A DNA stretch of 64,000 bases, from assembly GCA_001938485.1 (NCBI GenBank), contig MQRK01183776.1:13592-77591 (forward strand), read 5' to 3'. The stretch's first letter is position 1; every line of letters begins with the position of its first letter. The notes beneath the pieces are model-generated. The model was not told where the DNA came from, did not search any database, and worked only from the letters and a program-made list of their open reading frames with translations. Shown here piece by piece: positions 5,178 to 61,395 of the stretch. The stretch comes from Girardia tigrina. Taxonomy: Eukaryota. The position numbers and the translations under genes are program-made.

Positions 5178-6200
5178 AAAAATATATTAACACAATATAT
5201 TTTGACGGATCAACCGTCATCTTCAGTTTACTTATTAATAATTAAATTCATCTGTATATAAATGAAAAATAACGATTGTGTTATTGATTGCAGGAAAACA
5301 CGCTAATCCGAAATTCTCAATAAACTGGTTGAGACTGCTAATTGAACATTGATTTCAGGACAAAGTAACTTAATTACAATGCTTCACACGACACCCTCTC
5401 CTAGGACTATCAAAATGCTTATACAGAATCTTGAAATTATCAATATTAATATCACATTTACATTTTTTCATGTGTTCTGCAATATTGCTCTTGCTCTCTT
5501 TTCGAACATGTTCTTGAATTCGTTTACAGATATGACAGACAGTCTCTCCAATTTATGTGACATCGCATCCTTTACATTTATATTCATAAACAAATTCAAA
5601 ACAAAGTTTTAAAAGTGTAATTTTAACATTTTTTAAATTTAATTCATTGCTAATTGCTTTTATATATTTTTACATCCTTCAGAATAAGGTACACTTAATC
5701 AATATTTAGGGATATTATTAATAATTAGTGATACGCCCATTTCTCTATTAGAACCATCAGGAGAAGCAAAACTCTGATTTTATGAATTATCTTTCAAAAG
5801 TATATTATCCACTGTTTCCTTTAATAGTTTTTCACGAAACAAATTTAGAATAACAATTCTGATTTAACAAGGAACTTAGTTTATTAACTCTTTCTACTGA
5901 TTTTAAAAAGTTGAAGACAAGGACCAAGAACAATAAAATTAAAAGTCTAATTATGTTACTTTTATATTTCGGTTCACAAAAACTGTTCGGTGAAATATAT
6001 AAACATATATCATTTTGCTTCCTATAAATTCCAGTCTCATAATTAAGGAATTTTCTTTCAACCAAAAGATCGAGAAATAGTAAGACTTCATTCATTTTAT
6101 TTCAACTGTAAAATCAACATTTTAATATAATGAATTCATAAATTTTTAAAATGGAAGTACATAACCTTGATTTTTAAAAATTAGAATCATATTTATTAAG
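5178..6200 (-). mobile_element. Degraded Penelope-like element (RT C-terminus + GIY-YIG endonuclease + 3' hammerhead)
   Basis: FLDLLVERK..YETGIYRK; IGETVCHICKRIQEH...SNIAEH; homologous to the 54-55.6 kb copy. Confidence 0.85.
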
Positions 6201-6739
6201 AACATTAATTTAATTTTCATTACATTTATTTGCATCACAATTTGAATTGTTACTAGAACAATTCTCCGTAAAACTTGCGTAGCTCGACATCGTTCTTGAT
6301 TGATAATTTTTTAATAATATTCTTTAACATCTTTGCTATCCATTTAAAATAAAATGACTAATTCCGATTCTAAGATTTATTAATTATAACATAATATCCA
6401 TAATCTCGACTATTTAATGGAGAAAATAGTGATGTTATAATGAATCACATTTTCAAAGCCTTTTCATTGGTTTACACTCTCAAACACACACATACTATCA
6501 ACATACATTCAGCATACATTTAACATACATTCAGCATACATTCAACATCATACAAGTAACCCATTTTATTGTATCATCACAACTGACTTTACACAATCAA
6601 TTTCATCAGCAATTACATAATAATTATTACGCAATTAATCTTATTTATTTATATTAGTAACAAATAATATTTATTATGTAACTATTCCTACTCACAGTCT
6701 TATTATTCGAACAAATTTAAATTACAATTTAATTATTAC

Positions 6740-7092
6740 AAAAATAATTTATACTTTAAATTAAAATAATACTGATAATGGGTGCAATATTGTCGAACAT
6801 AATTTAAAATGTAAAATGAAAATCGGAGAAAATGATTTTCAAATTCTGTGTAATCGATTAAAAAATTACTGGGAGAGAGTAACGTGTGAGGCTTTATTAA
6901 TAAGATCCACGGATCCAAAAATTAATATTCAAGTTTCACACTCAACTTCTCTGTTAAACATTTTCAAATAGAGCCTTTAATACATAATTGTTTGCATATT
7001 CACCTTTCTCATATATAAGCTGCAAAAAACCAGTGTTAATTTAGTCTGAAGATGGCGGGTAATCCGCCGAAATTAATTACAAAAATAAATTT
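6740..7092 (+). mobile_element. Penelope-like 3' fragment
   Basis: Reads ILCNRLKNYWERVTCEALLIRSTDPKINIQ (cf. KKYWERVSCEALFIRSCDLKINVQ at 55.4 kb), followed by a hammerhead core. Confidence 0.75.
7046..7092 (+). ncRNA. Minimal hammerhead ribozyme (Penelope type)
   Basis: CTGAAGA - stem II GGCGG/CCGCC - GAAA - AT-rich imperfect stem III. Confidence 0.7.
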
Positions 7093-7379
7093 TGAAAATG
7101 GTGTTAATTTTTTAATAAAGAATACAAATTGCCATTATTTTTTACATTCCTTATTAAATTAAAATAAATTTTATTTATTTTAAGAAAATTATTATTAAAA
7201 TATTATTTATGAAATATTAATGTAATTTTAAAATTGGTTGTTTAAATTTCAATAATTGATTAAATAATCCGACGTTTTAAAATATTTAAAATATATATCT
7301 TCCATCTGGTTTGGAGAAACACAATCCTAAAACAACATACCAAACAACATACACTAAGCACCATTCAAAAATATTCCTC

Positions 7380-9941: not shown

Positions 9942-11119
9942 GTTCCTCAATGAAAACATTTATTCAAGTTTACAACATTATTGTACAAATACTCGGTAAG
10001 TAATTATCATTGTCTTAATTGTGTCGATTATTAATATCGATTTATTTTTAGTTTAAAAAAAAATATTATTATTGTATTAATAATTTTACCAACAAACACG
10101 CAGCATCAGCGTTGGTTTGCCACAGGAGAAATGATAAAAGTCGGCAGTCATAATCAGTCGAGGTTATAGTCATGCTAATGTGACACAATAAAACCATAAG
10201 AACATCTAGTCATTTACGTTAAATTTTTACATCAGTAATTAGCGTTTATCTTGAGATAATTTGAAGAAATTCGATTTAAGATTCCTGTAAATTTTTCTCT
10301 TTGTGTTCTTCTAGAGTTTCTTTTGAATCAGAAGTGATAGATTGTTCAGAGATTTCTTCTGAAGGAACAATAAAATTCATGTCAGGATATTCAACTGGAG
10401 TTCTTGGTGTCGTCTTGATCGGTTGACTTGCATTTGCACCCAGGTTACTCTCTAAAGGCACGTCATCGACTTCATTTACTGGCGTTTCTTCAGCTTCATC
10501 ATTATTCGCTTTTTTGGGTTATTTTCTTTACTTCATTTATCAACACTGCCAATTCGGATCGTGTAGTTTTAAAGGTTTCATTGAGTTCTTCATTTAACAC
10601 TTGTTGTCCATGCCCAAAATTTAATGACTTAATATAGGAATGTTCTTTATTATTTTGATACATGATTTCAGACATTTCTTGCTCTTTGGGTTCTTGAACA
10701 AAAAGTAGATGATCTTCATTTGATAGCATTCCTTTTCCGTTTGCTCCTTTATTTTGCGTCATAAATAATAGTTTAGCTAACCAATTATTTATCAGTTTTT
10801 TAATTATAAGATGAATCAGTTTAGAAAAATCATACCAAAAAAGAATCACAACATAAATCCATCATGCATCACATTCATCTCATGCAAGAAAATTTATGTA
10901 CAAAAAATAAAAAACAGCTAATGAAACCAAGACTTTGTACAAGAACACAAGCAAAACCACGTCCAAATCAAAGATAATTCAGAGAGAAGACTGGTGAGAG
11001 AAGTACCCACTACAGGGATTATTCAAATTGGTTTGTGTTTCTTTTCTTATGATGAACGTTTTGTAAAAATTTTAGTTTGAAATTAATTGTTTAATGGGTT
11101 TTTTAAAATAAGATTAATG

Positions 11120-11769
11120 CGCAAACATGTACCTTTTCTTTTTAATGATGAATGGTACATTCAGGAAGACGGTGTCGCAATGGGTTCCCCATTAGCACCA
11201 ACTTTGGCATCAATATTTATGAAGTCGCTTGAGGATAAAATGAATGNATACCCTGGTGAAAAACCTGTGTTGTACAAGAGATATGTGGATGATGTCTTTT
11301 TGATTTTCAGAAATCAATCCCTCATAGAACCATTCCTAACATTCATGAATGGTCTTCATCCGAATATTAAATTTACTACAGAATTGGAAGTAGATAATAA
11401 ACTTCTCTTTCTGGACATTCTTGTCACTAGGATGAATGGAGGCTATAAAACTGAATTATTCAGAAAGGCAACAGATAAAGGTCTTTACACAACACCACAG
11501 AGTTTTTGTGAGGAAAAATACAGAGAGGGTATGATCAAAGGGCTTGTTCATAGAGTTTGGAGTTTGTCGTCCAGTTTTGAAATTGCAAAGCAGGGTTTAA
11601 ATATTCATAGAAGGCGCTTAAAGGACAATATGTATACAAACAAGCAAATGGAACACAACATTAAGGTAACATTAGACAAATTATGTACAGATGCACGAGT
11701 TAAAAAACAATTAAAACAAGAAAATACTGAAGAATACAAACAAATCATTAAAATTCCATATTCTGAAGG
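11120..11769 (+). mobile_element. Penelope-like reverse transcriptase, open frame up to the assembly gap
   Basis: [20 protein letters not shown]...LYKRYVDDVF...HPNIKFTTE...FLDI...FRKAT. Confidence 0.92.
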
Positions 11770-14689
11770 NNNNNNNNNNNNNNNNNNNNNNNNNNNNNNN
11801 NNNNNNNNNNNNNNNNNNNNNNNNNNNNNNNNNNNNNNNNNNNNNNNNNNNNNNNNNNNNNNNNNNNNNNNNNNNNNNNNNNNNNNNNNNNNNNNNNNNN
11901 NNNNNNNNNNNNNNNNNNNNNNNNNNNNNNNNNNNNNNNNNNNNNNNNNNNNNNNNNNNNNNNNNNNNNNNNNNNNNNNNNNNNNNNNNNNNNNNNNNNN
12001 NNNNNNNNNNNNNNNNNNNNNNNNNNNNNNNNNNNNNNNNNNNNNNNNNNNNNNNNNNNNNNNNNNNNNNNNNNNNNNNNNNNNNNNNNNNNNNNNNNNN
12101 NNNNNNNNNNNNNNNNNNNNNNNNNNNNNNNNNNNNNNNNNNNNNNNNNNNNNNNNNNNNNNNNNNNNNNNNNNNNNNNNNNNNNNNNNNNNNNNNNNNN
12201 NNNNNNNNNNNNNNNNNNNNNNNNNNNNNNNNNNNNNNNNNNNNNNNNNNNNNNNNNNNNNNNNNNNNNNNNNNNNNNNNNNNNNNNNNNNNNNNNNNNN
12301 NNNNNNNNNNNNNNNNNNNNNNNNNNNNNNNNNNNNNNNNNNNNNNNNNNNNNNNNNNNNNNNNNNNNNNNNNNNNNNNNNNNNNNNNNNNNNNNNNNNN
12401 NNNNNNNNNNNNNNNNNNNNNNNNNNNNNNNNNNNNNNNNNNNNNNNNNNNNNNNNNNNNNNNNNNNNNNNNNNNNNTATATATATATATATATGTTAAT
12501 ATATGTAAAGTTTAATATATGCGTAATCTTAAGATATATAATTTAATATAAGCGACAGCCGATCTCCAGCGCCAAAACACGGCTTACTTCCCAGACCACG
12601 ACCAACGAAAAAACAATTCGCCAGACCTCCCGCATAGCCGCCGAACGAGGAATCGATCGGAGATACTCTCGGTCGATCATCCGAAAGCAATTGCTGACGA
12701 TTCACATTTAAGTCAAAACACTATCTGCTACTAAAATTTGTAGATAAAAATTATGCATCTCCATTATGGATCTTCCTTATGGACATCAAGATTTTGTGGC
12801 TTCATAGGAACCTGCAAAACCTCATTTTTTTGACCGCTGTACCATCACCCTCATCGAATTTTTATTCAACATTTTCACTTGACAAACGTTTGTTGAAAAT
12901 ATCTTAGGGCTGAGTAAATTTTTCTTGTACAACCCTCAAAACAATATTCACCAAAACATTTTATTTATATCATCTATATGATTTTAAATAAAATCCTTAA
13001 TCTATCTTTAATTCAAATCAAAAGACAAAGTTTATTTTAGAAAGATAATATTTTATATCGATTTACAACAAGTAAAATTTTTACAAATTGATTAGAAAAT
13101 ATATATGTATCCCCTTACTTATGCCCAGTTACGTTAAAGGTCTGGTTCTCATCCAGAGCCTTTAGTATTTTAGGTACGGTTTTATCCCAATTATAAATAA
13201 ATATAGAAATAAAATTAATTACGAATAACGTTTGAAATTATCAATATAAATAAAGATTAACAATTTTAAACGTTTATAAATTATAGTAACCTCAATACTG
13301 TTATGTCACTCGAAACAATTCATTCTTCTTCACCAATAGATAAAAATTCTCTTCAACTAATAATTATCCTATCCCTTCGATAAATCAAATAATAATAAAT
13401 AATCTCTCCTTCCTCAGCCTTGACGAATTGAATCAATAATTAATGACATCTTCGTACAAAAACTTCTTTAGGTTAATTAGACAATAAGTAACGTTGCCTA
13501 CGTGTAAAATTTCTCTTCATCCTTCGGTTAATTTGAGCAATAATAATTTTCGTCTGGCAAAAATCTCGACCATCTAAATGATTTTAAAATTTTCTCCAAT
13601 TTCTATTTTACTTACCTAATGATTTTAAATTTTTCTCACTAATACTATATTAGTGTTTTCTTTTATACTTTATTGATTTCTTGTAGGCTGTACCTACGTT
13701 TTCTATTTTTTTGCTCGATTTGCATTTTTCTTGTTGGTCTAGATTTGGCCTTTGAATTTAAAATTTAAATTATTTCTTGTCTTTTTTTCTTTTTTTTTCT
13801 TGTCTTTTCCTTCTTATTTTTTAAATAATAATATTACCTTTTTAATGTAAATAATAATATTATATTAATAATTATCACGCACTAAAGTAAATAATAATCC
13901 ATATTATTTACTAAAAATAAAAAATAAACTTATTTTCACAAAATATATTAAAATAAACAAAAAATTAAAACAAATATTTACATATTCAATAACATATCCA
14001 AACACTTTGATTTACGAATGAAATTTACTAATGACATTTCAGCAGTTTCCTTTTCTCTAAACCTCATTTATATTTTTATTCTTTAATATTGTTTAAAAAT
14101 TTATTAAATTTATAAAAGATTCCATACAATTAAAAAAATATTTAAGATTTCATATTACAACCATGAACAAGTTTGAATAAAGTAAAATTTCAATAAAGTG
14201 ATAGAATATGATGATTAAAATTAGGATAAAATTTAGGATAATAATTTAAACGAAATCAATTAAGGAGTTGGAAAAATAAAAATGTATTTAATGAAAATTT
14301 GTTTGAAAATGTATATTTGTTTTATTAATACATTTTTGTGTTAAATATGAATGTGAGGAATAATTTGGAATGTTGTAAGTTTGTTGTTTGTATGCTGTTT
14401 AGATTTGTGACTCTCCTACTCAGATGGGATTGATATGTTTATTGATTGATTATTTGAATCTAATGAAATTAATTTAATGACATTAATTTTAAGTACTAAT
14501 TAATTGAAGTTTTATAATTGTGAATTTTAATAATGTTTTTAGTAAACGATTTTAACTTATTAAATTTAATATATTTTAAAAATTAATGTTTATTTAAAAA
14601 AATACACAATGCCTTTTTATCCAATAATATTAAAATTATAAGAAATTAAAAGTAAATATTAAAAAATTTCCCATTCATTGTTTTTTTAG

Positions 14690-23940: not shown

Positions 23941-24228
23941 ACAGGCACAATCTCAAGGGTTTCAAAAAATATGAATTGACGAATTTCACAAAAAATGAAC
24001 AAAAACAACTGATTGTGAAATTTTATCTGGCTCAACCATTCAGAGCGAATCATTTCATTCATTTGCTCACAAACTCGGCAACTGAACAACAATCGGCAAA
24101 AATGAATTAACAACACTGACTCGATAAGTCATCGTTAATTAATCCATTGTTCTTTAAATGAACAAAGATCGAAATTAATTTTTTAAATTTTCTTTACCAA
24201 TTTAATTTTAGATTTTCATTTATACATC

Positions 24229-25716
24229 TGTAGCAACAACACAATGAACAGCGCGCAAGTTATATTTGAAATTAAAATCCGAATCGGCAAACAACCGATT
24301 TAAACAAATACATCACACGCCCCCCTGCCTTCAAGGCATATTCACTGCATCAGCAAGGAGGCAAGCCAACTTAATTTGCGGTCCTTAGACCGCACCCCGA
24401 GTCCCCGAGTTCGGTCTGTTCCCGAATTTCAACTCGGCTCCCGCGGTAGCCAAAAAATTGTATAGTGACAGCCTCGTGACCTCCGGCATTGCAGTCTCAC
24501 TCGCAGCTGTTTCTTCGCTCGCTTCAGCAGTGCGCTCCCCTGCACCACAACCAGATTGGTTGCCTCGCCTGGCTCCTGCTGCTCGTCTGCCAGTACCATC
24601 AGTTACATTGCAGGGTGTTCCCCGTCGCACAGCACGGTCGTTGTGTCCAACATGATGACCGACTTGCCGATATGATTAACTAGGTTCTTCTTCATCACGT
24701 GCAGCTCGAATCGCGCAGCTCCTCCTAGGTCATCCCTTGTCTCCTTGATCGTCCGGTTGAGCTTGTCCCTCAGCTGCCGCAATTAGCTCATCAGAAGACA
24801 GCCTCTAATGTTGCCGCCAGCCGGTTCTGCCCGAGCATTTCTTGTCAAATTCTCTCGTCCACTCAGTTTTCAACATCTTCCTGCCCGCGTATTCAACTAA
24901 TAGGCTTGAATATGAGTCCGTAAATGATCGTCAGTTCTCGATGCCGTCTCAAATCCCCTCGATCGCCCGCGCGTCCCGCAATCAGCTTTTCAATCGCCCG
25001 CGCCTCTCTTGATCTGCTTCTCGATCACCCGCCTTCTTTTGATCTGCTTCTCGATCGCCCGCACCTCTCACGATCCGCTTCTCGATTGCCTCGCCGTTTT
25101 TTCCTAACGACGACTTGATGCACACGACCCAATCGTGCAGCTGCGCATTTTCGATTTTATCCGTGTCCGCCTCGTCCACGAACACGAGCCTCCGGTCACT
25201 ATCTACTATCCCGAGCGCTTTCACTGCGCACAACAGCTGCCCAAATCCCAGCCGGCCGAGAATTCTGCTATCGAACTCCATCTTCTCGACCACCTCGAGC
25301 CTCATGCGGAGTGTTCAATTGTCCCCGACCCGAAATCGTGATGTCCCTCTGATCCATATTTGACGAAATTGTCGATATCGTCGCGATCTGTATTGGGTGC
25401 CACCACCGGTCTTGACATCGGCCACCAGACTTCCAACCGCTATGATCACTTCCCGCCGGAAAGCAATCGGATTGGTGAATCTGCCGATCTTGTAGAATTT
25501 TCGTCTTTCGACAGCACATCAATCGGTCCCTGAAAGCTGAAATTGCCGCCCCTCCGCATCGTCATTGGCTTTGATATCACTTTCTTGGCGCTGCTCACTG
25601 TCAACATTGGTTGTTGCCGCGATAGCTTGTAGCAACAACACAATGAACAGCGCGCAAGTTATATTTGAAATTAAAATCCAAATCGGCAAACAACCGATTT
25701 AAACAAATACATCACA
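24229..25716 (-). mobile_element. Small non-autonomous LTR element (TRIM-like), 1488 bp, 89-bp LTRs
   Basis: LTRs 24229-24317 and 25628-25716 (TG..CA, one mismatch); 5-bp TSD ACATC; PPT GGCAGGGGGGCG next to the 3' LTR; GC-rich interior without RT. Confidence 0.93.
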
Positions 25717-28700
25717 ACATCTTTATATAAATATTTCAGTGATTGTCATTCGACAAAATATAACAGGAAAAAATGCCCATTTGAATCGTCTTTGGGCAAG
25801 AAGAGAGGAGAATTTATAAATAAATATAACAATAAATAATTTATAATTTCAATTTCGAAACAATTATTATTAAAGTGTCTCAAATGTATCTATTTTGTTC
25901 ATTGGTGTAAATGTACATTTTTATTTTTTTATGTATGTGTTATTAATTTCTTTGTGTAACATTTCTCTGTCACCAGTGACAATCACCATAACAACCAAAA
26001 AATGCGAATCTGATACATCACTCGAAAAAAGTATAAAGTCGAATGATGTAGATCGAAGTAAACAAAAATTTTAAGTAAGCTGGAGCTAAAAACGAACATC
26101 TAGCATCTGCTATTCCAAATAATATTGGAGATGAATCTGTTCGCACACTTCATGATTACGTCAATGGTAATAGCTCCAAAGATTGTAGTAAGACTGTGAA
26201 GCCAGAAAGAAAAACGAAAGCCTTTAATGGAAGCAAGAAATAAGATTTATAAATATTACAACATGGATTTAAAAAAAATCGATAAATCAGAATTAATATA
26301 AATTTCGCGATTAGTTATCGCTAACAAAATCTGGTCAAGCGTAAACAAAAAAAACAACAATCCTCCCAACGACAATCGGTGCATCAACCTTGACAACCTC
26401 AGATAATCAACCGATCAATTCAATGTATATCTTCGTTTTGGACAATACTCCCCATCATCCCTAGTTTGGTGAATAATTATATTGTTTACGAAATCGTAAT
26501 AATCATTACGACTTACATTTTTTTAACAATATAGTTATTTTGTACGTTGGTTTGTTTTTTTTGGTATTTTTAGATTGCTAAGCTCATTTAACTTACTTGT
26601 TAGATTAGCTTAGTAATTCTTCCCTGTATAGATTGATTCATAGTCACTATCGTTCATCTGATAGGTGAGTCATTCTATAATTGGTATTAAATCATAAACA
26701 TTGTAAGACAATGTTGAGTTGGGGCATTGTACCGTTGCTGCCAACTGTTCTGGACGTCGATCCCTGCATCGAGGCAGGAGAAAACTTGGTTGTTATTATA
26801 CTCATATTTAAGAAAAACAATGTAAAAACTCGAATATCCGTTTTATTTCGGTTGTCAACCATTTATCTTTACAGCACATTTAAATTTTTTTGAGTAGATT
26901 TTTTGTGTTAATTAGTTCACTTAAACAATTTTCTTTATTTTGACATTAAACTTTTTGCTTGTTCATTGTTTTCGGTTCACTTTTCTTTTTTCTTATACTT
27001 TCATTTTTTTTAATTAACAACAAGGTTTCATTGGTAATGAAAATTATTATTTATTAATTTAGAAATTTGCAAAAGTGAAAAAAATATATTAATATCAAAA
27101 TTTGTTAATTTTGGTTTTACTTTTGTGAATTAATTTTTTTGAGAAATATTTAACAAGTTCATTATGTGCTATTCGGTGGTCACTACATACAAGAACTAAG
27201 ATTGTTTTTGCAAAAAGTGAAAGCCATCTGCTTCTACACATTTCTCTTTCCGTTAAGACAGCTGTTTAATTTCATCAAAATACCAATCATAGGATCTACA
27301 GTCCAACAATTGATGAAACCATATCTTGAAATATTTCTGTACTTTAAAAAATCTTGCAGAAAAAGTGGCCTTCAGTCTAAATGGATAGTGATCTGAACAT
27401 GATAGGTTTTGGTTAGTAGAAATATAATCGCTCGTGTAATTAAAATTATTATATATTCCGAATATTCATCGTATCCCATAAAAAGTATACAACAAGACAT
27501 TTTTACGAATCATATAGATTTATAAATGTTAGAAATCTATAGAAAATTCTGGGTTAAACATGTATTAAAATTTATTTTTTATATAAAAAAAATTTAATCA
27601 TTTTATTAGAGTTTGTCATTATGAGTAATAATTTTTAATATGTAATTACCATCCTCCACAATATCAAGGACCGGTCACTTAATAATCTAGATATTGAAGG
27701 GGCTTCCTTACACTTATTGCTCATTTCGTGGAATTGGCTTCTATCTCATGAGCTGATATCATCCCTTTCAGAATTTCTGTCTGCAATGCAATCATTGGAA
27801 TCTATTTATAATCGTTTTTGATTGTTGGATCACTCAAAGGCTGGATAATATCTCTTTCATATTTATTTATATAATGAGTTTTTTATACTCATATCAACAT
27901 TTATATTTACCAAATTTATATTTACATGTACTCATGTTTATATTAAATGTGGACCAGTCCAAGCTGAAAGATCATACTCATGAACATATTAAATGTAAAT
28001 ATATTATACAAATCGTATATTAAATAAAAATGTATTATATATTTTATATAAATCATATATTAAATGAAAATTTAAAAATTTTATAATAATGATGAAATAA
28101 GTAATCGCGTAGCGATCAAATTAATATTTGAATTACAATTAAAAATAAAAATAAAAACTAATATTAACGAGATTCCGATCTGCAATAATTATTATCGTTC
28201 CACATAGAAATAATTACCAAAACAAAATATTCACACAAGATTATTTATCATCAACATTTCCAAGGACTACTATTTATCCAATAACGGAAAAAATAAGTTA
28301 ACCTAAGTTGTAATTATTATCAATTCAATGTAAAAACAGAAAGCACATGAATTAATTTTTTTATGAAGCTAATTAAAAGATCCAAATCACTCTCAAGAGT
28401 TTACTAGTTATCTTACAATCACGAAATCAAGTAATTCAAACTCTCATTCCTTTTCCTATGATTCAATATTTCGACTTTCTTTTTTTCTATCTGTTGTCTC
28501 GTTTAGAATAGTTTTAATAATAAACTTCATATTAGTTATATATTTTCTTATTTTTACAACATAAGTGAGTCTATTGAGTCAGTTACCGAATTCGTCGGCT
28601 CCTTTAATAAAATTGTCTTTTGACCATCATTTATCCATTAATTACTTATCCCATTAACTAAATAATTTGCTTATCCAATTATCCCTTCTCTAAACCATCA

Positions 28701-38540: not shown

Positions 38541-41500
38541 ATTTTTTTTATAATTTTGTAATCATGTTTATTTTTTACTACATTGGTTAAAAAAATGATC
38601 CACATGCGCTATATTGCTTTCTGCTAGAACTTACAAAAATATGCTGAGTTTACAAATTAAATTAATTGCAGGTCGTTAGCGTGTACAGAGCGGAGCGAAT
38701 TCCGGCTTTTAAAGCTTAATTAATAAATTTATAAATAATGGATTATTAGGAGAAATCGATTTTTGCATAAAAATGGCTATTTATTTTAATAGTAAATTTT
38801 AATTAATTTGTGTGTTCTCATCAAGATTACACCTTTAAACTCAATCGAACCACAAGAAATAGATGAAATTTTTGTGGCATATAAATATAAGAATGTGCTA
38901 ATAAAAGCACAGTATAAAAATGAATTTATTTATAATCTTTAAATTACGTTTGTTAATTCGATTCATCAGATTTGAAATAGTTGTAAATTTAAACAAATAT
39001 TTTTGTTATCATTTTATTTTGAAAAAATTTTTTTAATATTATATAGAAAACTATTTTTACGAAAATATACATGAATTATAAAACATGTTTAGTAAAAAAA
39101 CTTATCCAAGAAATCTTTTTGAAAATCATTTGTTTTCTCAATGTTAGTCATGACAGATTACTAAAACAAATGATTATAATGTGGAAAAAATAGATTTTTA
39201 TGAATTAGATAATTTATTAAACACAAAAAATAAAACTAAATCTAAATTTTTATTTCATTTTCCATAAATGTATATATGCCCACAATTATATTTATTTATA
39301 TTAAAATCGGCATATATATATATATATATATATATAAACACGATTTTATTTTATTACAAAAATCAATGAAATAATTCCGATCAATCATTCCTGATTAAAA
39401 CTCAGTTGAATTAAAATTTTCCATATAATTATCGAAACAAGAATTTGGATAATTTTAAAATCTGGAATTTTTTTTATTAAATAATTTCGTTACAAAAATA
39501 CTTTAAATTCCACATCAACATTTCCACAGATTCCAGTCAAGAAAATTCGAATTAAATTCCCTATCCTAAATGATATCCAATACTTTTTCTTTTTTACAAA
39601 ATTACCAATCAACGAAATCTAATAATTAAAAGATACGAAACACGAAAAATAATTACAAAAATAGCGCCAACAACTCAAATACAGATACTTTCTTTGACAA
39701 TTTTCTATTACTATTTACAAGCATTTATATTACGTCAATATTCGGTTTCCTGCAATCGATTTACTTCCGCAACAAGTATATTTTGATTTTCATTAATATT
39801 GCCATAATCCTACGATTTTTGTTTCATATATCAATCAAGTCATAATATTCCGCAATTTGTTATCTATTTGACCACACATTTTGAAAATATAGATATAAAT
39901 ATCGCCTATTGTTTTCTTTTCAATACAAAACGAATCCACTATCACTAATCTCACGAAATTTTTTTTCCTGTTCATCTTGTCTATAAAACGATACAGACAT
40001 TTCCTCTATACCTAAATTTCGCTAACATATAACGAACTTAGCATTAACTACTGTAGATTATCGGACACCCGCCATACTAGTTATCTGGGATTTAGTCGTT
40101 TTGTTAAATTTGATTAATTAATATATATTTTATAATTCAATTTTTTATTATACTACATTGTATGCGAATCGAAATATAGTCTATTTGGCATAATAATCTT
40201 ATATATAATCCGCCACAGTATACTAATCAATTTCCTAAAATGCTAGTTTTTTCTTTGTCATATTAAAAGGTATATCGACAAAATTATTTTTCGTTTTCTT
40301 ATTTAAAGTAATTTGGACAGATTGTAAATTGTTAATTCTCAATTTCTTATGAATTATAAACTTTGCATAGAATTTATAATTTAGGACATCCAGAATGTCT
40401 TACTTATCTTGCTTTACCATTTTATGTTCTTTTACAAAGTATTAGTTTTATGAACAGTATTAGTATAATTAGGCAATACTAAAGTATTTTAAAGTTCCCT
40501 AGGATTTTAATGCGTCATCATAGATTTTCAAAATTCAGATCACTAAAAAAATCTTAGCACTCACAAAATTATCTGTTAGGTTGTCAGTTGACGTTGACGT
40601 ACTGGGTCGATAAACGTCATTGTAGTTGATCAGTTACAAGGGCGAAATGGAGGCGACAATGTAATAAGAAACGACACCGAACTGTCTTGGGAAGTATATC
40701 TCGGATCCTCTCTGGACAACACTTTCCTTTACCTATAACAAACCGAAAACAATGCAAATTTATTTAAGAATATACCAATTTTGGATGGCTCATGAAACCA
40801 TACACTTGGACCACCATCCAGGCCCTCAGATAACTCTTTCTGAACATTGAAAACAGGTCGCATTCCCGACAAACGGGAAACCTTCGGTGCACGGTAATCA
40901 AAAATGTTAAACAATTCAATAACGTTCGATGACATCGACAGCAGTCCTTATTTTGCAGAAGCAATTTCATCTCTTGTGACATTTTATCTGCCATATATTT
41001 TATTGCTTTTGATTTATTTAAACTACAGCTTTGTTATTTTTCATTTTATTTACTATTTACTTAATTGTTTTTTCGAATTATCTGTAAATGTTACTTGTAA
41101 TAAAAATCGTTTATTTAAAAATTTTTTTTGTTTTTTTACATTTGATTTAAATAGATTTGAAATTTCAAGTTACTTTGTTAAATTTCAATATCAATTTAAT
41201 TTGATAGTATTATTGAAATTCGGTGTGGTTTATTTATTTTATTCACTACATTGTCAAATTATAAATATTCATGAAAAGTGATTTTTAATCAATAAAAATA
41301 TTATCTGATGAAGCTCGATATGGTTGAATGGCCAATCAGAGTGTTGGAGCGCTTTAAGTAACTTACCGAGACATCAATAATATTCAACTATTAAGTGGTT
41401 CGCCTTCTCTAAAATATATCCTTTAATTTGGAAGATCGAAGTATGTGCATCATTTCGATGTGACGTCATATTTCACAAATCCCCCTCCCCCTTCTGCGTG

Positions 41501-43730
41501 ACGTAATTTATGATCAAACCTAAATCGCTAAACATTTAAACGTCTTAACAAACGTAAGCGTTTAAACGCTAAATGTGTCCACCTCTAATAAATAATTATT
41601 TAAAACGGTATATATTTTTAAACAACATTTAATTATTTGAATTTTTAATAATAATATTCAAATAACTAAAACAATTAAATAACTTAGCTTCATTCAAATA
41701 ACCCAGCTAAATTTTAATATTTTCTTCAAATAATTAAGAGTTTAAATAACTCAACTTTAAAATAACTAAAAAATTACTTTATGGGAGTTGCGGGTCTGTG
41801 CGATGAAACCCTGAGAATACTTTGTCAAGATAATTGTTTTACCGTTAGTGGGTGGCGTTTTGACAAGGGTATCGGGGCCGCCACCTGGCCCAAGGTGATC
41901 GGAAACCAATGGAGTCCCCTGGAATGACTTTGTTACTCCTTGACCGTTGATTCTGGTGATCTTATCGAAATTAACAACAATAATTCGTTTGGAATTATGT
42001 TTCGATTTAGATTTAATCGATGGAGTTTCGCAAGCGGGCGTCAAAAATCGACCTGATCAAATCAACGATACTTTGACATTGTCGAACAATTCTTTCCGGG
42101 AAAAATCGGATGAGTTTTCTTTGATAAAACGATAATAATTGAAAAACACGGACACAAAATGGTTGTCAATCATTGTATATTTATCAATTCAATTTATTTA
42201 CAAAAAATAAGTGATTCAGTAAAACAAATGGTGTAAAAAACTGAATATTTTTATTTCTTTTTTTCTAAAATAATTAATTATAAATAAATATATAATGTTT
42301 TTATGAGATACAGAAATAATCTTATATATATTTGAATAAGTTGATTTTGGGGGTCACTATAACTACTGTATATTTTTTTAAAGGTGTTAGATTTTGAATT
42401 ATTGCCGATGCCACCTTTGGACGCACCAGGGCGCATAGGATCGCGTCACACGTGATGATCGTCATGCGCGAGATTAGTATCAAACACACTTTCGTTAGTC
42501 TAGACTTGACCACCTCGCAGCGACTCAACAATCCTCGGTAATTTTATATCAGGGTACCTATTCGTCGGAAAACAGTACTCCTCGAAAACCGATTTAGCAA
42601 ATTGAAAATAATTTTTGAGAATCGTGTTAATGTCATGATTGTTCCGGTCAACGTCTCAAGTCACTCGTCTCGATAGGCGCCAGTTCGCATCACAATGCAC
42701 AAAAATTTATACAAGCACCACGCTCATATCGGCTATTATTTCTCGCACATTTGCAGTCAATCTCACAAACGTTCGATGATCATCATCGTGAATTATCGTC
42801 TTTCCTTGTTGCAAAATCATGACGAAAACATTGTCCAACTCAACAAATTCGAATATATCGGGATATTCGAAGTTGTATTTCCCATCGATCACGGCCGAGA
42901 GAATCAAAAGACCAAATATTTTGGTGTAGTATTTTCACTCGACAGTCGATCCGTATTTACGCATATTTTTTAATGACAAATACATTTATATACAATTATT
43001 CAAATAGGCCGTTAACTTCGTTCAAATTTTTATTTTTTAATCACAGTTTTTTTCTAGATACACAGAACATCGCTTTATTTGAAACATTTAAACAAACTGT
43101 AGGTCATCACAATTCCATTTTTCACTATATAAATATATTAAGAAATTTTAATTTTAACATTTTCAATTTATAAATATATATATACATATAATTTAATTCT
43201 ATGATTTTTAATCGACAATTAAAATCGAATCAGGAATAAAGGATAATTGAATTTTTTAAATGCATTTTTTAATGAAATGCATTTTAAGAGTCTAAATCAA
43301 ATTTTAAAAATAATAATTGCGATAGTGTGCTCGATATCCAATGTCAAAAATATTAATATTAAATATTCTTCCGCACAGTAGGCATTTCATAGAGATGGAA
43401 GATGCTCAGGGATCCGCAGACGAAACCGGATAGAGATACAGGAAGAAGAAATACCAATGGACTTCATACTACACATGGATGAACCCGACAGTATGGAGGA
43501 GCCCCAAATCGATGCAGTAGTGGAGAACTTCGATCCGGTAGTCCTCGACAAGGTACTCAACTCGAGACGTAAACAGAGTTGAGCAACTTGAAAAAGAGAA
43601 CAATTACTTCTCCTCTGATGATGAATCGTTAGAATATGAAGTATAAAATATAAGGTATAGGACACATAGATAGGAGGAAACGATCACCCAAACCAATGGT
43701 GCCGAGGAGTCCACATGAAAAGAAACCCAG

Positions 43731-44733
43731 TGTAGTGACCTACTCTTTTATATAGGATATAATTCCTATAATAAAATTAAATTGATTTTGTTAATTGATG
43801 GATTAAGTTGTAATAACAGTTTATTTTGAATAAATATTTATTATTATTCTCTGGAATTTTTACAAAAAGTGGGGATATCCAAAGAAGAAAAATCCTTCAC
43901 AATTAACAAAATCAATTTATTTTATTATATAAAATAGTAGGATAGGCAGTTGTACAATTCTGTAGTAAAAAAGTAATAAATAAAATTTGTATCTAAAAAA
44001 AATCAATGAATAAATCAAGAAATTAATTAACATTACAATAACTAATTACCGAATTACCGACGACTTATAATGGGAATTTTTGTTCGGTTTCGCGGTTGTG
44101 ATTAATGTACGGTTTATTTTTTTAAGAGTTGTTAAAAATTTTGTTTTTTTGATCAACTTAGTTTTTTTGTCATACGATAATTATTTCTAATTGTAAAAGC
44201 TGCGAATAAACTAATTTAATTTATTCACTATTAAATTCTTTGCTTTTACAAAGTGGTGTCAGAAGTAGGATTATTTAGTTAACAAGTCAAAAGACAAATC
44301 GGAAAAACTACAAGAAGCAAATAGATAGGCAGTGTATAACGCAGGATTAAAAGATATCGAATTTTGGTTGGGTGAAGTTGAGCATTCGTTGTCTAGTCCT
44401 GATTATGGCAAAGATTCTGCTTCTGTTGACAGTTTACTGTCTAAGCATCTAGTATTAGGAACTGACATTCACGCTCACGAAGACCGTATAAGAGATCTGA
44501 ATGAAAGAGCTGATGAATTTATTGAATCTGGTACATCCCACTTCTGACACCAATTGTGAAGGATTTTTCTTCTTTGGATATCCCCACTTTTTGTAAAAGT
44601 TCCAGAGAATAATAATAAATATTTATTCAAAATAAACTGTTATTACAACTTAACTGTTAAATCCATCAATTAACAAAATCAATTTAATTTTATTATAGGA
44701 ATTATATCCTATATAAAAGAGTAGGTCACTACA
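43731..44733. mobile_element. Chimeric LTR-derived integrant with inverted LTRs carrying an alpha-spectrin fragment
   Basis: 43731-43901 is the reverse complement of 44555-44733 (8-bp indel); TG..CA ends; 5-bp TSD CCCAG; two inward PBS-Leu copies. Confidence 0.9.
44260..44533 (+). pseudogene. Alpha-spectrin repeat fragment
   Basis: DYLVNKSKDKSEKLQEANR*AVYNAGLKDIEFWLGEVEHSLSSPDYGKDSASVDSLLSKHLVLGTDIHAHEDRIRDLNERADEFIESG resembles SPTAN1 [76 protein letters not shown]; TAG at 44326-44328. Confidence 0.92.
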
Positions 44734-45232
44734 CCCAGTAAAAACCATGGCACAGCTAACCAGCCTTACGGATTTATATAGGACAGACCAAGTAATTTTT
44801 CCCACAGAAAAAAAATTCCAGTAAACATTAGAATGAAGTTACTGAAGGAACCGATAAAACTTGTGACCACAATTCAATCTTTTTATTTATATTAATATTC
44901 CTCATCCTATTCGGTCGTTTGATAAATCTCCACTTGATTTTGATTATTTGATATTCGGAAGAATTCCAATATAACGAATTCGATATTGTTGATGCATTTT
45001 CCATTTTGCAAGATTTTTGACAGATATTTCCAATTTATGATAATTGTTCTTCCTTCAGGTTCGATCGAACAATGTCCTTAAAATGTATTTTGAAATGGAG
45101 GAGTTTTGATTTTAATAAAAAACGTTCTTTCTTTTTGAAACTATTCTTTAAATTTCTTTTTATTTTATTTATTTTAAATATTTCCAATATAAACCAGAAA
45201 ATGAATTTCAATTCTTTACAAATTAATTACAG

Positions 45233-45351
45233 ATTTGGACCAAAAGGAATTCGAATGATTTAGAAGATTGTTATTTGGAATTTTATAAAGAAATCGTTAG
45301 ATTGACGGCTGTGATGGTTGCCAAATGGCAAGCCGTAGGATTCTGTCACGG
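45233..45351 (+). CDS. SELENOO: SelO exon 5 (after a ~25.5-kb intron)
   Basis: Acceptor ttacag; IWTKRNSNDLEDCYLEFYKEIVRLTAVMVAKWQAVGFCHG (WQxVGFCHG motif); donor GTAAAG at 45352. Phases agree with exons 4 and 6. Not in the ORF track. Confidence 0.93.
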
Positions 45352-45921
45352 GTAAAGATTAGTTTGATATAAATTTTTGTCATTAATTATTAGATTTATT
45401 TTACTTTAGTTCATATTTTTAAATTTTTCTAACTTATTTTCTAAAGTAAATTATTGAAAAAATTATCGACAATAAAATCAAATGTCATTTTTCATTAAAT
45501 TAATTAAAAAACAGATCGATTTCACCATTTTGGCATCCTCTGTGTTTTATTACATTTTATTATACTGAGGAAACAACATCTAAAAATATCCCACAAAATT
45601 TACTAATTATTTTTTGAATTTGATTAATATCTCATCTATGAATACAAATCACTGAAATTGTGATAATATATCTTACTTACCGTATTAGAGGTTCTTGGAA
45701 GATCGTCGCATATACAACACAACAAATATTTAAATCTAATATATAATTGATATATATAATAGTATATTTCTATTTATTTTTTATAATATTAATTTAGTTT
45801 TACATCATCGTACTCTAATTGTACCTGAATTTTTTTGTAAAAAGTTACTTTTACAAAACTTGATTTCACAGATAAAACAGGCTGATATCCAAAGCAGCTC
45901 GCACGTAGAAAAATATACATA

Positions 45922-46667
45922 CAGGCATACCTCGATTAACGCTACCCCTTTTAGCGCTGTTTCGTTATAGCGCTCTTTTGATTTTATGAAAAAAAAATAA
46001 TTTTAACTTCAAAATATTTGAAGGTGAACGACAGTCCGAAGTGTCTTCCAGCCTAGGGTTGGCTGGATCAACTATTAGAACCATTCTTAAAAATTCCGAT
46101 AACATTAAGAAATCCATTTGTATAACAACTTCATTATCTGCCAAGAAAGTAACACGCACAAGAAATACTCAAAAATGTTTGGAACATAATCTAGGGATAA
46201 TCCAAAATGCCTTAGAAGATTTAAGTGAAAATGATCCCAATTTTGAAAGGTCCTGCGCTATAAAACGAGGAGTAATGAACCCTTTATCACCCTACATGGA
46301 AATTTTAAAAGAAAAAAGAAAACTGTTTAAGCAAACAAGCTTACCCACATTTTTTTAAAAAAATAGTTAAATATGAATTTACGCCTTTATTTTGTGATAT
46401 GTATTAATATATTTTTTGTTTTTATTGAAATTGATTTGTTATATTGAATTCTAATTTATTTTCTAATTTTTAAATGAAGTATAAATGAAATAAAAATTTT
46501 ATTTCAAAATAAAATACCATCTTTTTTATTTTTCACTTCAAAGTACCAAAAAAATTGGTTAGGAACGTAACCCCATATTTTAGTGTAAATAGCACCTCTT
46601 TTGACGCTGTTTCTGTAAACGCTCAATTTTCAGGAACGCAATATGAGCGCTAAACGAGGTATGCCTG
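45922..46667 (+). mobile_element. Internally deleted Tigger element, 746 bp
   Basis: TIRs CAGGCATACCTCG.TTA / TAAACGAGGTATGCCTG. The ORF joins the N-terminal HTH (GLAGSTIRTILKN) to the C-terminal DPNFERS...KQTSLPTFF with no DDE domain. Confidence 0.9.
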
Positions 46668-47166
46668 TGTTGGGACCCGTGAGTTTTTCCTTCGCGTCAG
46701 CCCCGGGCCTATTCATTGCACCGGCACCGAGGCAGGCAAAGGAAAAACTCCCTAAATAAAAAAAAACAACAAAAAATAAAACATTATAATGATAATTTNN
46801 NNNNNNNNNNNNNNNNNNNNNNNNNNNNNNNNNNNNNNNNNNNNNNNNNTCGTGTCGATTTGGATATTTTCTCATGAGAAAATCGGTGTCCTGATTTTCT
46901 TAGTCTTGTCTTGGCCTGGAAATTCGCCATCCTCGGGTGGTTACTGTTGAATGAAATTTTGATTTTTTTTTATAACCGTGAGAATTGTCCGGTTATGGGG
47001 TTTGTGAAATTTTTTGTAAAGGAAAACAGTATATATTCGTCCGATTTTATACACCTGTCAGTGATTTATTTGCATTGAATAAATTTTTTTTTTAAAAAAA
47101 GAGTTTCTTATTAGGTAATTTTATTTTCGCTTCTAAAATGATGGAGGTTGGGGGAAACATCACCAA

Positions 47167-49322: not shown

Positions 49323-49568
49323 GAAATACATATTCCGGCACATTTAAAAAATAAGAGTTAATAAAATATTTCGATTATATTACTCTTCAACATTCATTAA
49401 ATAAGTGATACTTTAGAAATGAAAATTGTACTGAAACATATTTTATATTATATTATATGTCAGTACAATTTTCCTTAATAAAGTATCATTAATTTAATGA
49501 TTATTGAGGAGTAATATATTCGAAATATTTTATTAAGTCATATTTTGATGTTTCGGAATATGTATTTC
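49323..49568. repeat. Imperfect ~245-bp palindrome (MITE-like)
   Basis: GAAATACATATTCCG...GAAAATTGTACTGA mirrored by TCAGTACAATTTTC...CGGAATATGTATTTC. Confidence 0.75.
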
Positions 49569-49779
49569 CAGGTACCCATACTTCTCATTATTTTGTGTAG
49601 ATTTTGAATGTACCAAAAGATTTCAGTTTTACCAACTATATAAACACAAAGAACATTTAAGTAATACATAGAAATATCACTTTTCTCATTCAAATTAAAA
49701 ATAGATTTTCATTAGATGTTTACGATATATTTATTTTTAATTTACTGTGTATACATAATAACCTTTATGCAATTTTTAG

Positions 49780-50056
49780 GGTGTTAAACACAGATAATAT
49801 GAGCATTGTTGGAGTGACTATTGATTATGGACCATTTGGTTTCATGGATCGATTTGACCCTTCTTTTATTTGCAATGCCTCTGATACCGGTGGCAGGTAT
49901 TCATATGAAAATCAACCGTCTATTTGTAAGTGGAATTGCTTGAAATTAGCAGAGGCTCTAAAGGATTTGATCCCGCTGGATAAGAGTAAGAGTATCTTAG
50001 AATCCACTTTTGATGCAGCTTATAAAAATCAATATTTAACTCTTATGTCAATGAAG
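49780..50056 (+). CDS. SELENOO: SelO exon 6 (catalytic loop)
   Basis: [27 protein letters not shown]...[15 protein letters not shown]; HGVLNTDN and DYGP motifs intact; donor at 50057. Confidence 0.96.
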
Positions 50057-50106
50057 GTTATTTATTTGTCATAAGTCAAAACAAAAATGAACTTTGATTT
50101 TTAAAG

Positions 50107-53400: not shown

Positions 53401-53650
53401 GTAGTGACCACAATTTATTACATATCCATCGTAAAATTTTTCCTACACTAATAAAATTTTATCGTTGATTAAATTTATAAATAAAACTAAAACTAAAATC
53501 AAAATTATCAAATTTCAAATTTAATTAATTTTATCAATTGTAATTTTTTTAATTACCACTAATAAGTAAAATTTTATCGGTGTTAAAATTTATAAAAAAT
53601 CAAAACCTGGTAACTAAATAAAAAAAATAAAGTTAATGAAAATATCATTT

Positions 53651-53701
53651 AAAAATATATTTTAAGATAATATATTTCGACGGTTTAACCGTCATCATCA
53701 G
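53651..53701 (-). ncRNA. Minimal hammerhead ribozyme in the inverted Penelope repeat
   Basis: Minus strand reads CTGATGA-T-GACGG-TTAAA-CCGTC-GAAA-TATATT..AATATA-TT. Confidence 0.75.
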
Positions 53702-55567
53702 ATCACTGATTATGTTCTTTATTATTACTTTTATATAAGAAATGAATGATTATGTAATCACTTACGTAAGTCTAATCAAAAACTCTTAAGAAATTAGTTG
53801 AGAGTGCTGTTTGAACATTGATTTTTGGATCACATGATCTTATGAATAATGCTTCACATGACTCTCTCTCCCAATAATTTTTAAAATGCTTGCACAAAAT
53901 TTTAAAATCATTTATGTTCACATTACATTTACACGTTTTTTTATGCTCAGCAATATTACTCTTTCCCCTATTTGATGGATGGACAATTTACGAAGACATT
54001 TTACGATGGACATTACAAAGGATATTTTTGACTGACTTCATGTGTCTGGTTCTCAACCAGTAAAATTATACGGCCTTCCTAAAATACATAAAGATGGAGT
54101 TCCAATGCGACCGGTTCTATCTATGATCCGTACGTCTCAGTACAATATTGCTAAATATCTAGATACGAAGATAAAGTCTTTCATTCCTAATGATTTTATT
54201 TGTAAGGACAGTTTTGAGTTTGTGAATTCCAGTGCTTATTTTGAAATACGAACTGAAAATGATTTTATGGTTTCCTTTGATGTATCGAGTCTATTTACTA
54301 ATGTTCCGTTACAGGAAACCATCGAATTATGATGTGAACTTTGGTGTAAGAATAATCTGGACAATTCTGATTTAGATGAAGTTGCTTTTCGAAAACTCTT
54401 AACATTTGCTACTTCAAATGTCCATTTTCTATTTAATGGTGAATGGTATAAACAAATAGATGGGGTTGCAATGGGTTCACCATTGGCTCCAACGTTAGCC
54501 TCTATATTTCTTTCTTCCATTGAAGAAAAAATAGAATTGTTTTTGGGGAAAAAGCCACTACTTTATAAGAGATATGTGGATGATATCTTTCTAGTCTTTG
54601 AATCTCGAGAACATGTGTTTCCTTTTCTAGATGACATGAATTCGATTCATCCAAATATAATCTTTACAGTAGAACAGGAAATAAATGGAAAATTACCATT
54701 CCTTGATTTGTTAATTGAAAGGAAAAATGATCATTATGAAACTGAAATATATCGAAAGAAAACTGATATTGGTTTTTACACCTCCATAAACAGTTTTTGT
54801 GAGTTTAAATATAAAAGGAATATGATCAAAGGTTTGTTATACCACTCTTAGTCTCTTTCTTCTACGTTTTCAAAATCTATTAAAAGTATTGATACATTGA
54901 GCAAGTTATTGAATAATAGCGGTTACTCTAAGTCCATCTTAGACAGACTCATTCGTGAGACTGTAGATAAAATAATCGAAAAAGAAAAATCAAAAATGAA
55001 CAAATTAATAGTTTAAACATTGAAAACTGCTTTACACCTGGGTATACTCTAAGTTTACCTTACTCCGAGGGTTTTAAACATCTCAAGAATTCGATCTTGA
55101 AATCAACAAATAACATTTTAAATTTAAAAATTATTTTTCAATCATTTAAAGTTGAGAATATGTTTTGCAATAAATCACATACTCCTTTGCGATTGTATTC
55201 GGACATTGTTTATCAATACACATGTTATGGGTGCAATGCCACATACATCGGAGAGACTGCCCGTCATCTCTTCAAACGAGTCCAAGAACACAGTCAAAAA
55301 GGAGGAAAGAGTAATATTGCTGAGCATAAAAAAACGTGTAAATGTAATGTGAACATAAATGATTTTAAAATTTTGTGCAAGCATTTTAAAAAGTATTGGG
55401 AGAGAGTGTCATGTGAAGCATTGTTCATAAGATCATGTGATCTAAAAATCAATGTTCAAACAGCACTCTCAACTAATTTCTTAAGAGTTTTTGATTAGAC
55501 TTACGTAAGTGATTACATAATCATTCATTTCTTATATAAAAGCAATAAAAAGAACATAATCAGTGAT

Positions 55568-55616
55568 CTGATGATGACGGTTAAACTGTCGAAATATATT
55601 ATCCTAAAATATATTT
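55568..55616 (+). ncRNA. Minimal hammerhead ribozyme at the Penelope 3' end
   Basis: CTGATGA-T-GACGG/CTGTC-GAAA-TATATT/AATATA-TT. Confidence 0.75.
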
Positions 55617-56099
55617 TTTAAAGGCGTTTATTTCTTTATAATAAAAAATTGCTATCTTTTTTCAAGTTTATTAATGAAAATATGTTGTTTAAATATGTAT
55701 GATTTAAAATAAAATTTTCTTATCGGCTTGAAAACGTGATATTTTCCCTGCCTTTTTTTTATCGATTATTCTTTGCGGTAAATTCTATAATCGTATAGAA
55801 ACCGTAAAAAAAGATAAGAAAAAATTCAACTGACGGCGAAACACCTGGGGGACGATTGGCAACGAAAATCGCTCGTAAATTCCCCCCATCGCCCGATGGC
55901 GTCAAAACGCCGAATCGACGTCGTTCTGAAACTCTATGGCAAGATGGCGACCCCCATAGCATCCCAATGCCATCCGACACCGGTAATTTATCGTTATTGT
56001 CGAACCGTTTCTCCGGAGTCAAATTCAAGGGTCACTGGTTGGTGATTGGACCCGTTGAGTTCCCATCGAGACGGCGCAATGTCCCCTTTACACAAAAAA

Positions 56100-60181: not shown

Positions 60182-61395
60182 TTGGGTTGGCCTAAAAATC
60201 ATTGCGTTTTTAAGTACGTCCTAATAAACAGCTTGACAATATAAAACTATGTGATAAAATTTAAATTCAATTATATATTCTAAAACCTCAATTTTCAGAC
60301 TATGTTTATACAAAATATTAATTGCTTTTGTTTTAATTGATTACTTTACCGTCAATTCGAAATGGAAAATCAAAATGAGCATATTCGTCATGTTTTGTTG
60401 CATTATTTTCGCAAAGGGAAAACCGCTGTGCAAGCTCATAAGAAGATATGTTTTGTATNNNNNNNNNNNNNNNNNNNNNNNNNNNNNNNNNNNNNNNNNN
60501 NNNNNNNNNNNNNNNNNNNNNNNNNNNNNNNNNNNNNNNNNNNNNNNNNNNNNNNNNNNNNNNNNNNNNNNNNNNNNNNNNNNNNNNNNNNNNNNNNNNN
60601 NNNNNNNNNNNNNNNNNNNNNNNNNNNNNNNNNNNNNNNNNNNNNNNNNNNNNNNNNNNNNNNNNNNNNNNNNNNNNNNNNNNNNNNNNNNGGTTACCAC
60701 ATGAACTGAAAGAAATTCATTTGGTGAAACGTATAGACATTTACGATTCCCTTTTGAAGCGAGAACAAAGTGATCCATTTTTGAAGCGCTTGATTACGGG
60801 TGACGAAAAAATGATTGTTTACACCAATGTGAAACGCCGACGATCATGGTCAAAACGTGGTGAGCCTGTCAAAACGACCCCAAAAAGCAGAAATTCACCA
60901 AAAGAAGGTTATGCTTTCCGTCTGGTGGGAATTTAAAGGAATTGTGTTTTTTGAACTCCTTCCGAGGAATGAAACCATCAATTCAGACAGATATTGTGAT
61001 CAGCTGGAGAAATCGGCTCATTCAATTCAACAGGAACGTCCTGAATTGATAAATCGAAAAGGAGTTGTAATTCAGCGTGTAATTCAGGTTTTGCCGCACC
61101 CACCGTATTCTCCAGACTTGGTCCCATCGGATTTTCACCTATTTAGATCACTGCAGAATTCCTTAAACAGAAAAACATTCGCCAGTGATGATGACATCAA
61201 ATCGTTCTTAGACGGCTTTTTTGCTGACAAGGGCAAAGGTTTTTATGAATCAGGAATAATGAAGCGACCGGAAAGGTGGAAGAAAGTGATTGAAAATAAT
61301 GGACAGTATACCGTGTAAAATTATTTGTGCATCCATGTCATTTTTTGATAATAAATATTTTAGTAAAAAACGCAATGACTTTTTGGCCAACCCAA
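60182..61395 (+). mobile_element. mariner element, defective
   Basis: TIRs TTGGGTTGGCC.AAAA.TCATTGCGTTTTT with TA TSDs; LITGDEK, KKVMLSVWW, HPPYSPDLVPSDFHLF. Frameshift, and the HDNA (second Asp) segment is deleted. Confidence 0.95.

Follow-up and report, generated by a model that had tools for sequence, protein, structure and literature searches.

How did a piece of a host coding sequence come to lie between two retrotransposon primer binding sites (PBS) that face each other, and did complementarity to the primer tRNA decide which messenger was taken? These questions are raised by a 1003-bp unit of Girardia tigrina, located at positions 43731–44733 of a stretch of 64,000 nucleotides (contig MQRK01183776.1 of assembly GCA_001938485.1; hereafter, the window), which is AT-rich. 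An earlier note on this DNA had proposed that the last 12 nt of the PBS match the parental alpha-spectrin mRNA, and that, if so, mRNAs complementary to the tRNA 3' end would be preferentially captured.

The unit contains, in order, an LTR, a second LTR-like segment, a PBS, a spectrin fragment, an inverted PBS, and an inverted LTR. Both U3 ends are directed outward and both PBS inward, and no internal open reading frame was seen there.

43726–43730, plus strand: left copy of the target site duplication, CCCAG; the identical 5-mer abuts both unit ends on the outside
43731–43901, plus strand: left copy of LTR-A, 171 bp, TGTAG...TCACA, U3 end outward; inverted match to 44555–44733
43900–43929, minus strand: fold-back copy of LTR-A bases 43767–43797 (96.8% over 31 columns, E 7e-7)
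43931–43949, plus strand: purine-rich tract (15/19 purines), a candidate polypurine tract judged by its sequence
43951–44250, plus strand: segment B, a candidate second LTR, 300 bp, TGTA...TACA, with AATAAA at 44205 and an uncertain 5' boundary
44254–44271, plus strand: left PBS, tRNA-Leu(CAA) type, an 18-mer with one G>A change at 44267
44272–44534, plus strand: captured alpha-spectrin coding fragment, 263 nt, sense, with an in-frame stop at 44326–44328
44535–44552, minus strand: right PBS, an exact 18-mer, overlapping the spectrin fragment by ~2 nt (AT)
44555–44733, minus strand: right copy of LTR-A, 179 bp, U3 end outward, with a 2-nt spacer to its PBS
44734–44738, plus strand: right copy of the target site duplication, CCCAG, the same 5-mer abutting the other end

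The CCCAG duplication would arise by chance with a probability of about 0.0004 at the local base composition. Together with TGTAG at both outer ends, it provides the hallmarks of integrase-mediated insertion, TG...CA termini and a target duplication of 4–6 bp, and, as two outward U3 ends and two inward PBS are enclosed by the flanking CCCAG copies, the 1003-bp unit was evidently inserted in one step. Its target is a GC-richer, coding-looking stretch with stops (43380–43730 and 44734–44860), in which none of the 10 frames searched had a Pfam match below E 0.1.

The two copies of LTR-A differ by one substitution and one 8-nt indel, and the left one carries AATAAA at 43770 and 43829. After this left copy come the spacer of the right copy, a single base of a PBS, and 30 nt that fold back as a copy of the LTR; this fold-back begins on a 5-nt overlap, CAATT, in which the LTR end is followed by the spacer (AT) and that PBS base. 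The two PBS 18-mers are alike at 17 of 18 bases; with up to 3 mismatches allowed, they are the only matches in the window, against an expectation of 0.00 (100 shuffles). They are separated from the LTR ends by 2 nt on the right and by 3 nt (AAG, after segment B) on the left, within the 0–3 nt rule, and the 18-mer is identical to bases 1–18 of a probe published for tRNA-Leu(CAA), directed at a mammalian tRNA (PMC7997516). A tRNA gene was also considered as the origin of the 18-mer and was discarded: none was found in the window, and Rfam returned only two matches, at E 0.74, far below threshold.

Segment B, present in one copy only within the window, is a candidate LTR on the grounds of its termini, the purine tract, and the PBS. 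Kinship with LTR-A was considered and rejected, as the local similarity near the LTR end does not rise above that of shuffled sequences (55/300 reach the score). A perfect 9-bp inverted repeat, TGTAAAAGC/GCTTTTACA, delimits the last 59 bp of segment B (44192–44250), with GAATAAA and TTTATTC forming a second pair further in; this portion could be a U5 hairpin or a true, very short LTR.

Inverted arms of 171 and 179 bp, TG termini, and a 5-bp duplication might equally describe a Ginger- or MITE-like element, non-autonomous and ending in long inverted repeats, that has picked up a gene fragment in the manner of a Pack element. We regard this as improbable: each arm runs from TG to CA, as an LTR does, the right arm carries internally CA, a 2-nt spacer, and the exact 18-nt PBS, and no second copy of the inverted unit was found within the window. 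The resemblance to Mag-lineage Ty3/gypsy elements points in the same direction. In two mosquito families, these are reported to have LTRs of 145–179 bp, a tRNA-Leu primer, and a 5-bp duplication (PMC3286476), and Mag is described as the largest clade in the flatworm Macrostomum (PMC12801592). The unit shares the short LTR (171–179 bp), the tRNA-Leu PBS, and the duplication length with this lineage; it holds no gag-pol sequence, the basis of an assignment by phylogeny. Inverted repeats can, besides, mislead assemblers, and the window contains 11 runs of N. Nevertheless, the unit is hardly likely to be an assembly artefact, given that positions 40000–46700 are free of N, that one substitution and an indel of 8 nt distinguish the arms, that a 5-bp duplication is present, and that the fragment has a stop codon of its own.

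The captured fragment is spectrin (PF00435, E 3.3e-13). The solved relatives that match it best are alpha-spectrins, and the nearest named protein matches are from Taenia and Schistosoma. It is identical at 84 of 88 residues to the closest relative found (P0001), and at 79 and 81 of 88 to two others (P0004 and P0023, respectively); searches of proteins, cluster representatives, and clusters yielded no named planarian spectrin and no relative closer than P0001. The parental codons used below are those inferred from the proteins of its relatives.

The fragment is a partial, internal coding piece with no poly(A), and each of its ends abuts a PBS. A resident spectrin exon struck by insertions was considered and set aside, because every tblastn match with E <0.1 falls in 44245–44541; the window thus has no other spectrin piece, and the unit is not an insertion into a resident gene. 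Five of the ten flatworm-like relatives stop after K-H-Q/E, as if at an intron. The fragment continues past that point, as do the other five (including the three closest) and two genomic loci, L001 and L002. An RNA origin of the captured fragment, as it may be read from these proteins, is not proven. The loci L001 and L002 come from a scan of bacterial and archaeal genomes, in which they were the two distant eukaryote-like spectrins (56% and 61%) out of 33 pattern matches. The two are animal-like alpha-spectrin genes (2001–3617 and 2001–4375, respectively) in contigs filed under two bacterial MAG records, to all appearances contaminants of eukaryotic origin, and their spectrin DNA served as an empirical null only.

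At the left junction, 44254–44271 followed by TAT TTA GTT AAC AAG reads in frame W-C-Q-K-stop-D-Y-L-V-N-K. The frame and the adjacency to Y-L-V-N-K claimed by the earlier note are confirmed, without the tryptophan: the left PBS has TAG, and W is obtained only via the other copy. The conserved spectrin Trp expected at this place is genuine, with W-x-x-L found in P0001. Immediately before Y-L-V-N-K, P0001 reads L-A-D-Q-W-D, and P0004 and P0023 read L-A-D-E-W-D. Among the orthologues examined (10 in alignment A1, together with P0002, P0020, L001, and L002), W-[D/E] is present in 14/14 (W-D in 8, W-E in 6), and neither Q-K-W nor K before the Trp occurs in any (0/14 each). Because of their shared ancestry, the 14 describe one junction and do not amount to 14 tests. 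The proposed parental reading, Q-K-W-D, is therefore right in its second half, W-D, and wrong in Q-K, where relatives have D-Q-W-D or D-E-W-D.

44266–44271, plus strand: left-junction microhomology, where the Trp-Asp codons of the parent coincide with the final 6 bases of the PBS

As Trp has a single codon, a host with W-D or W-E must have TGGGA here, and the overlap is confined to W-D because relatives have D-Q or D-E where the PBS reads Q-K. Codon enumeration gives an unbroken run of 5–8 nt and 7–9 matches in the last 12 nt; the spectrin DNA of L001 and L002 has a 7-nt run at this site. Provided that the host has W-D or W-E, the overlap in the inferred parent is at least 5 nt (TGGGA) and at most 8 nt, directly 5' of TATTTAGTT. 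This is about half the size of the 12-nt match first proposed; on the inferred parent codons, it nonetheless exceeds the 3 nt of identity at or below which that proposal was to be abandoned. The A at 44267 agrees neither with the PBS nor with the parent and probably reflects a later change or a copying error.

Is the W-D overlap a coincidence at a homology-free join? TGGGA is expected at this offset from a random breakpoint with a probability of about 0.001–0.002: 1.2–1.6 per 1000 for each junction in back-translated spectrin, where the null consists of random back-translations of P0001 (which contains the site itself) and of P0002 (which gives the lower value). When two junctions are allowed, P rises to about 0.003. 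In real spectrin DNA, TGGGA is also sparse, with 1 occurrence in 1617 nt and 6 in 2375 nt. Coincidence is very improbable on these figures, although only one event is at hand, the right join displays a machinery capable of joining with ~2 nt, and 4 of 29 Drosophila junctions are reported to be without microsimilarity (PMC5131818).

At the right junction, the window reads E-S-G and then T-S-H-F-stop, where P0001 has T-C-D and P0004 and P0023 have T-W-D. The overlap with the minus-strand PBS is ~2 nt (AT), which is reached by 6.5–8.6% of random joins (0.065–0.086) and is not significant. Just beyond this breakpoint, the parent's sense strand would have, judging from the relatives, TG(G/Y)GA(Y), which closely resembles the PBS end. 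TGnGA is expected there at 0.4–0.6% per site, a value to be read in light of its having been spotted post hoc, with about four orientations possible, and its polarity is wrong for priming by a PBS copy. That an mRNA held on tRNA bases 13–18 would fit this motif is speculation.

The strongest form of the earlier proposal was that of a cryptic PBS of at least 12 nt on the mRNA, primed by tRNA-Leu and leading to preferential capture. The in-frame W-D overlap is real, and the second motif beyond the right breakpoint could be counted in its favour; the proposal is nonetheless contradicted at this locus, and we give it very little credence. Priming by a tRNA copies the RNA 5' of the primer site, and the captured sequence is located 3' of W-D, on the wrong side for priming. 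Pairing with the tRNA CCA end would be limited to 1–4 of the first 9 PBS bases (over the L-A-D codons). A cryptic PBS is rejected for these two reasons, and Q-K-W is, in addition, absent from all the orthologues. The ATCCCAC-like match foreseen after GAATCTGGT is also absent, as relatives continue T-C-D or T-W-D rather than T-S-H.

As to preferential capture, matches of this size are common: a 5-mer match is expected in 56–70% and a 6-mer match in 25–32% of 2-kb mRNAs, and one or the other in 65–99% of 7.3-kb mRNAs. A match of 5–6 nt can therefore fix a breakpoint and hardly pick an mRNA. The microhomology determined the position of the join; there is no sign that it determined the mRNA, and a single event is incapable of showing selection by tRNA complementarity. 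In mosquito cells, recombination between virus and LTR sequences was judged not to be homology-driven (PMC6797480). What does fit the left-junction microhomology is the other role that had been suggested for it, that of a strand-transfer site.

A broader use of the same six bases can be imagined. A pair of inward-facing plus-strand primers (the tRNA-copy ends) would act on a co-packaged mRNA, with both breakpoints guided by the complement of tRNA bases 13–18, TGGGAT, which would be used directly at the left end and, at the right end, where relatives have a second site of this kind just beyond the piece, through tethering to the tRNA. That this constitutes a recurring route is, in our opinion, unlikely. 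If it were true, predictable internal mRNA pieces would be cut out and integrated between inverted LTRs, and convergent or hairpin transcription could yield silencing RNA against the parent gene.

We favour a simpler account: the unit 43731–44733 is probably a one-off aberrant product of reverse transcription, generated by a tRNA-Leu(CAA)-primed LTR retrotransposon in a VLP with co-packaged alpha-spectrin mRNA. The account starts from what can be read directly, namely the anatomy, both 18-nt boundaries, the target duplication, and, at protein-level resolution, the overlap of at least 5 nt. First, an LTR-A plus strand ending in the 18-nt PBS copy would have jumped to spectrin RNA on ~2 nt of pairing, and its extension into 263 nt of antisense cDNA would have created the right junction. 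Then, a second plus strand, composed of LTR-A, the short fold-back, segment B, and a PBS copy, would have annealed by its last 5–8 bases to the complement of the Trp-Asp codons on this cDNA, in place of the normal second strand transfer; filling in of both strands would have completed the left junction. Finally, integrase would have inserted the product via its two U3 ends, a step suggested by the 5-bp duplication and the intact TG ends. Both the G>A at 44267 and the fragment's in-frame stop may date from the copying or from later. A minus-strand switch from the mRNA onto the element RNA at the PBS would give an identical left join, and the sequence cannot discriminate between the two.

In retroviruses, plus-strand synthesis on the tRNA halts at the end of the 18-nt PBS, and both host–element joins of the unit sit exactly at this end. 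Like the left join, a third one in the unit, that of the fold-back, lies on a short overlap, of 5 nt. In Ty3, where the PBS copy is reported to be 12 nt long, plus strands of this type build up as dead-end products (PMC5371799). For Tf1 and HIV-1, cDNA 3' ends carrying the PBS copy in single-stranded form have been documented to pair with short matches in host sequence, and roughly half of the Tf1 cDNA retains a tail of this sort (PMC11042837).

Such tails also open the way to the main rival explanation, in which joining takes place at the DNA level: host repair (single-strand annealing or microhomology-mediated end joining) would tie the PBS cDNA tails to spectrin DNA or cDNA, with integration afterwards. 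Several microhomology joins within one unit are typical of repair synthesis as well, and intron loss of the fragment is not demonstrated. In Tf1 and HIV-1, PBS tails are moreover described as giving Rad52-dependent, integrase-independent insertion at short host matches (PMC11042837). However, the Tf1 match covers the first 5 PBS bases, and that of one HIV case the first 8, next to the LTR, and most of the HIV cases reported come without target duplication (PMC11042837). Here, the full 18-mer is kept, the match lies at the far PBS end, and a 5-bp duplication flanks the unit. We consider DNA-level joining unlikely, though not negligible, and retain the aberrant reverse transcription described above.

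Several known systems come close to this account. In Drosophila, overlaps were reported at 25/29 switch points between LTR and mRNA, with a median of 6 bp (Tan et al. 2016, PMC5131818). The unit resembles these retrocopies in being a partial mRNA copy with no poly(A), flanked by LTR-element sequences and with a left overlap near that median. According to the same source, host sequence takes the place of part of the internal ORFs in Drosophila, between 5' and 3' LTRs that are retained in direct orientation (PMC5131818). In contrast, the unit has its joins at PBS ends, its LTRs in inverted orientation, and nothing left of the element's interior. Neither the main text of that paper nor 8 of its supplement files contain the terms 'PBS', 'primer binding', or 'inverted', a finding that does not extend to its Data Set 1, which lists junctions and could hold PBS-adjacent cases (PMC5131818).

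A second parallel is the PBS-directed insertion of Tf1 and HIV-1, in which the DNA copy of the PBS at the cDNA 3' end pairs with a short host match (Li et al. 2022, PMC11042837). As presented there, the PBS copy pairs with chromosomal DNA, mostly through its LTR-proximal bases, and integrase is not involved. Unlike these insertions, the unit has its match at the distal end, contains a coding fragment moved to a new site, and is flanked by a 5-bp duplication.

Aberrant plus-strand transfer can join a strand to cellular sequence. A third parallel is this aberrant plus-strand (second) transfer in retroviruses and Ty elements, in which a U3-R-U5-PBS strand leaves its template and anneals elsewhere by its PBS end. 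The normal step and the dead-end plus strands are described in PMC5371799, and intermolecular transfer in PMC9278108. The difference is that, here, two such ends face each other across a host fragment and have become fixed in an animal genome. In the Pxyfem retrocopies of Plutella, too, a gene fragment lies between parts that come from two distinct LTR elements, and one of the switch points has a short overlap; these retrocopies are, for their part, multicopy and shown to make silencing RNAs (PMC9674220). Searches of literature titles and abstract openings found no description of a host fragment between two inward-facing PBS, which is weak evidence of novelty, as older virology is thinly covered there, and found no match for inverted LTRs, primer binding site, and target site duplication taken together.

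Short overlaps at LTR/mRNA junctions are thus already established, and the microhomology itself is ordinary. The locus displays a known mechanism in an unusual, well-preserved layout, and the microhomology first noticed is real, though modest, wrongly sized, and over-interpreted. The added value lies in the layout, with PBS ends inward, U3 ends outward, and a clean target duplication: the unit reads as the fossil of a failed second strand transfer that was still accepted by integrase. If such units recur, they can be counted as paired inward PBS motifs within about 1 kb, which pipelines based on direct LTRs miss, and it would become possible to test whether tRNA complementarity selects the breakpoint or the mRNA. 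A long stem is predicted for the unit transcript (-394.7 kcal/mol over 1003 nt, a value with no shuffle control), and small-RNA output is therefore a testable side effect.

The window contains a number of other mobile-element remains. A small GC-rich LTR element occupies 24229–25716, with two 89-bp direct repeats (99%, TGTAGC...TCACA) and a 5-bp duplication, ACATC (24224–24228 and 25717–25721), of the same length as the CCCAG of the unit; it has a G-rich purine tract on the minus strand and no TGG-type PBS at the expected place. At 53648–55621, a 329-bp inverted pair (96.7%) surrounds a reverse transcriptase fragment (RVT_1 at 54333–54848), perhaps in a Penelope-like layout; a diverged relative lies near 5146–7166, and a further reverse transcriptase at 11087–12496. 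Inverted repeats of 23 bp flank a CENP-B N-terminal domain fragment at 45921–46668, the remnant of a pogo/Tigger-like DNA transposon, and a Mariner-type transposase fragment is found at 60833–61315 (PF01359, E 5.7e-23). Finally, an exon-like piece of a SelO protein adenylyltransferase gene (49661–50071, E 3.9e-34) is adjoined by a 98-bp hairpin at 49348–49546.
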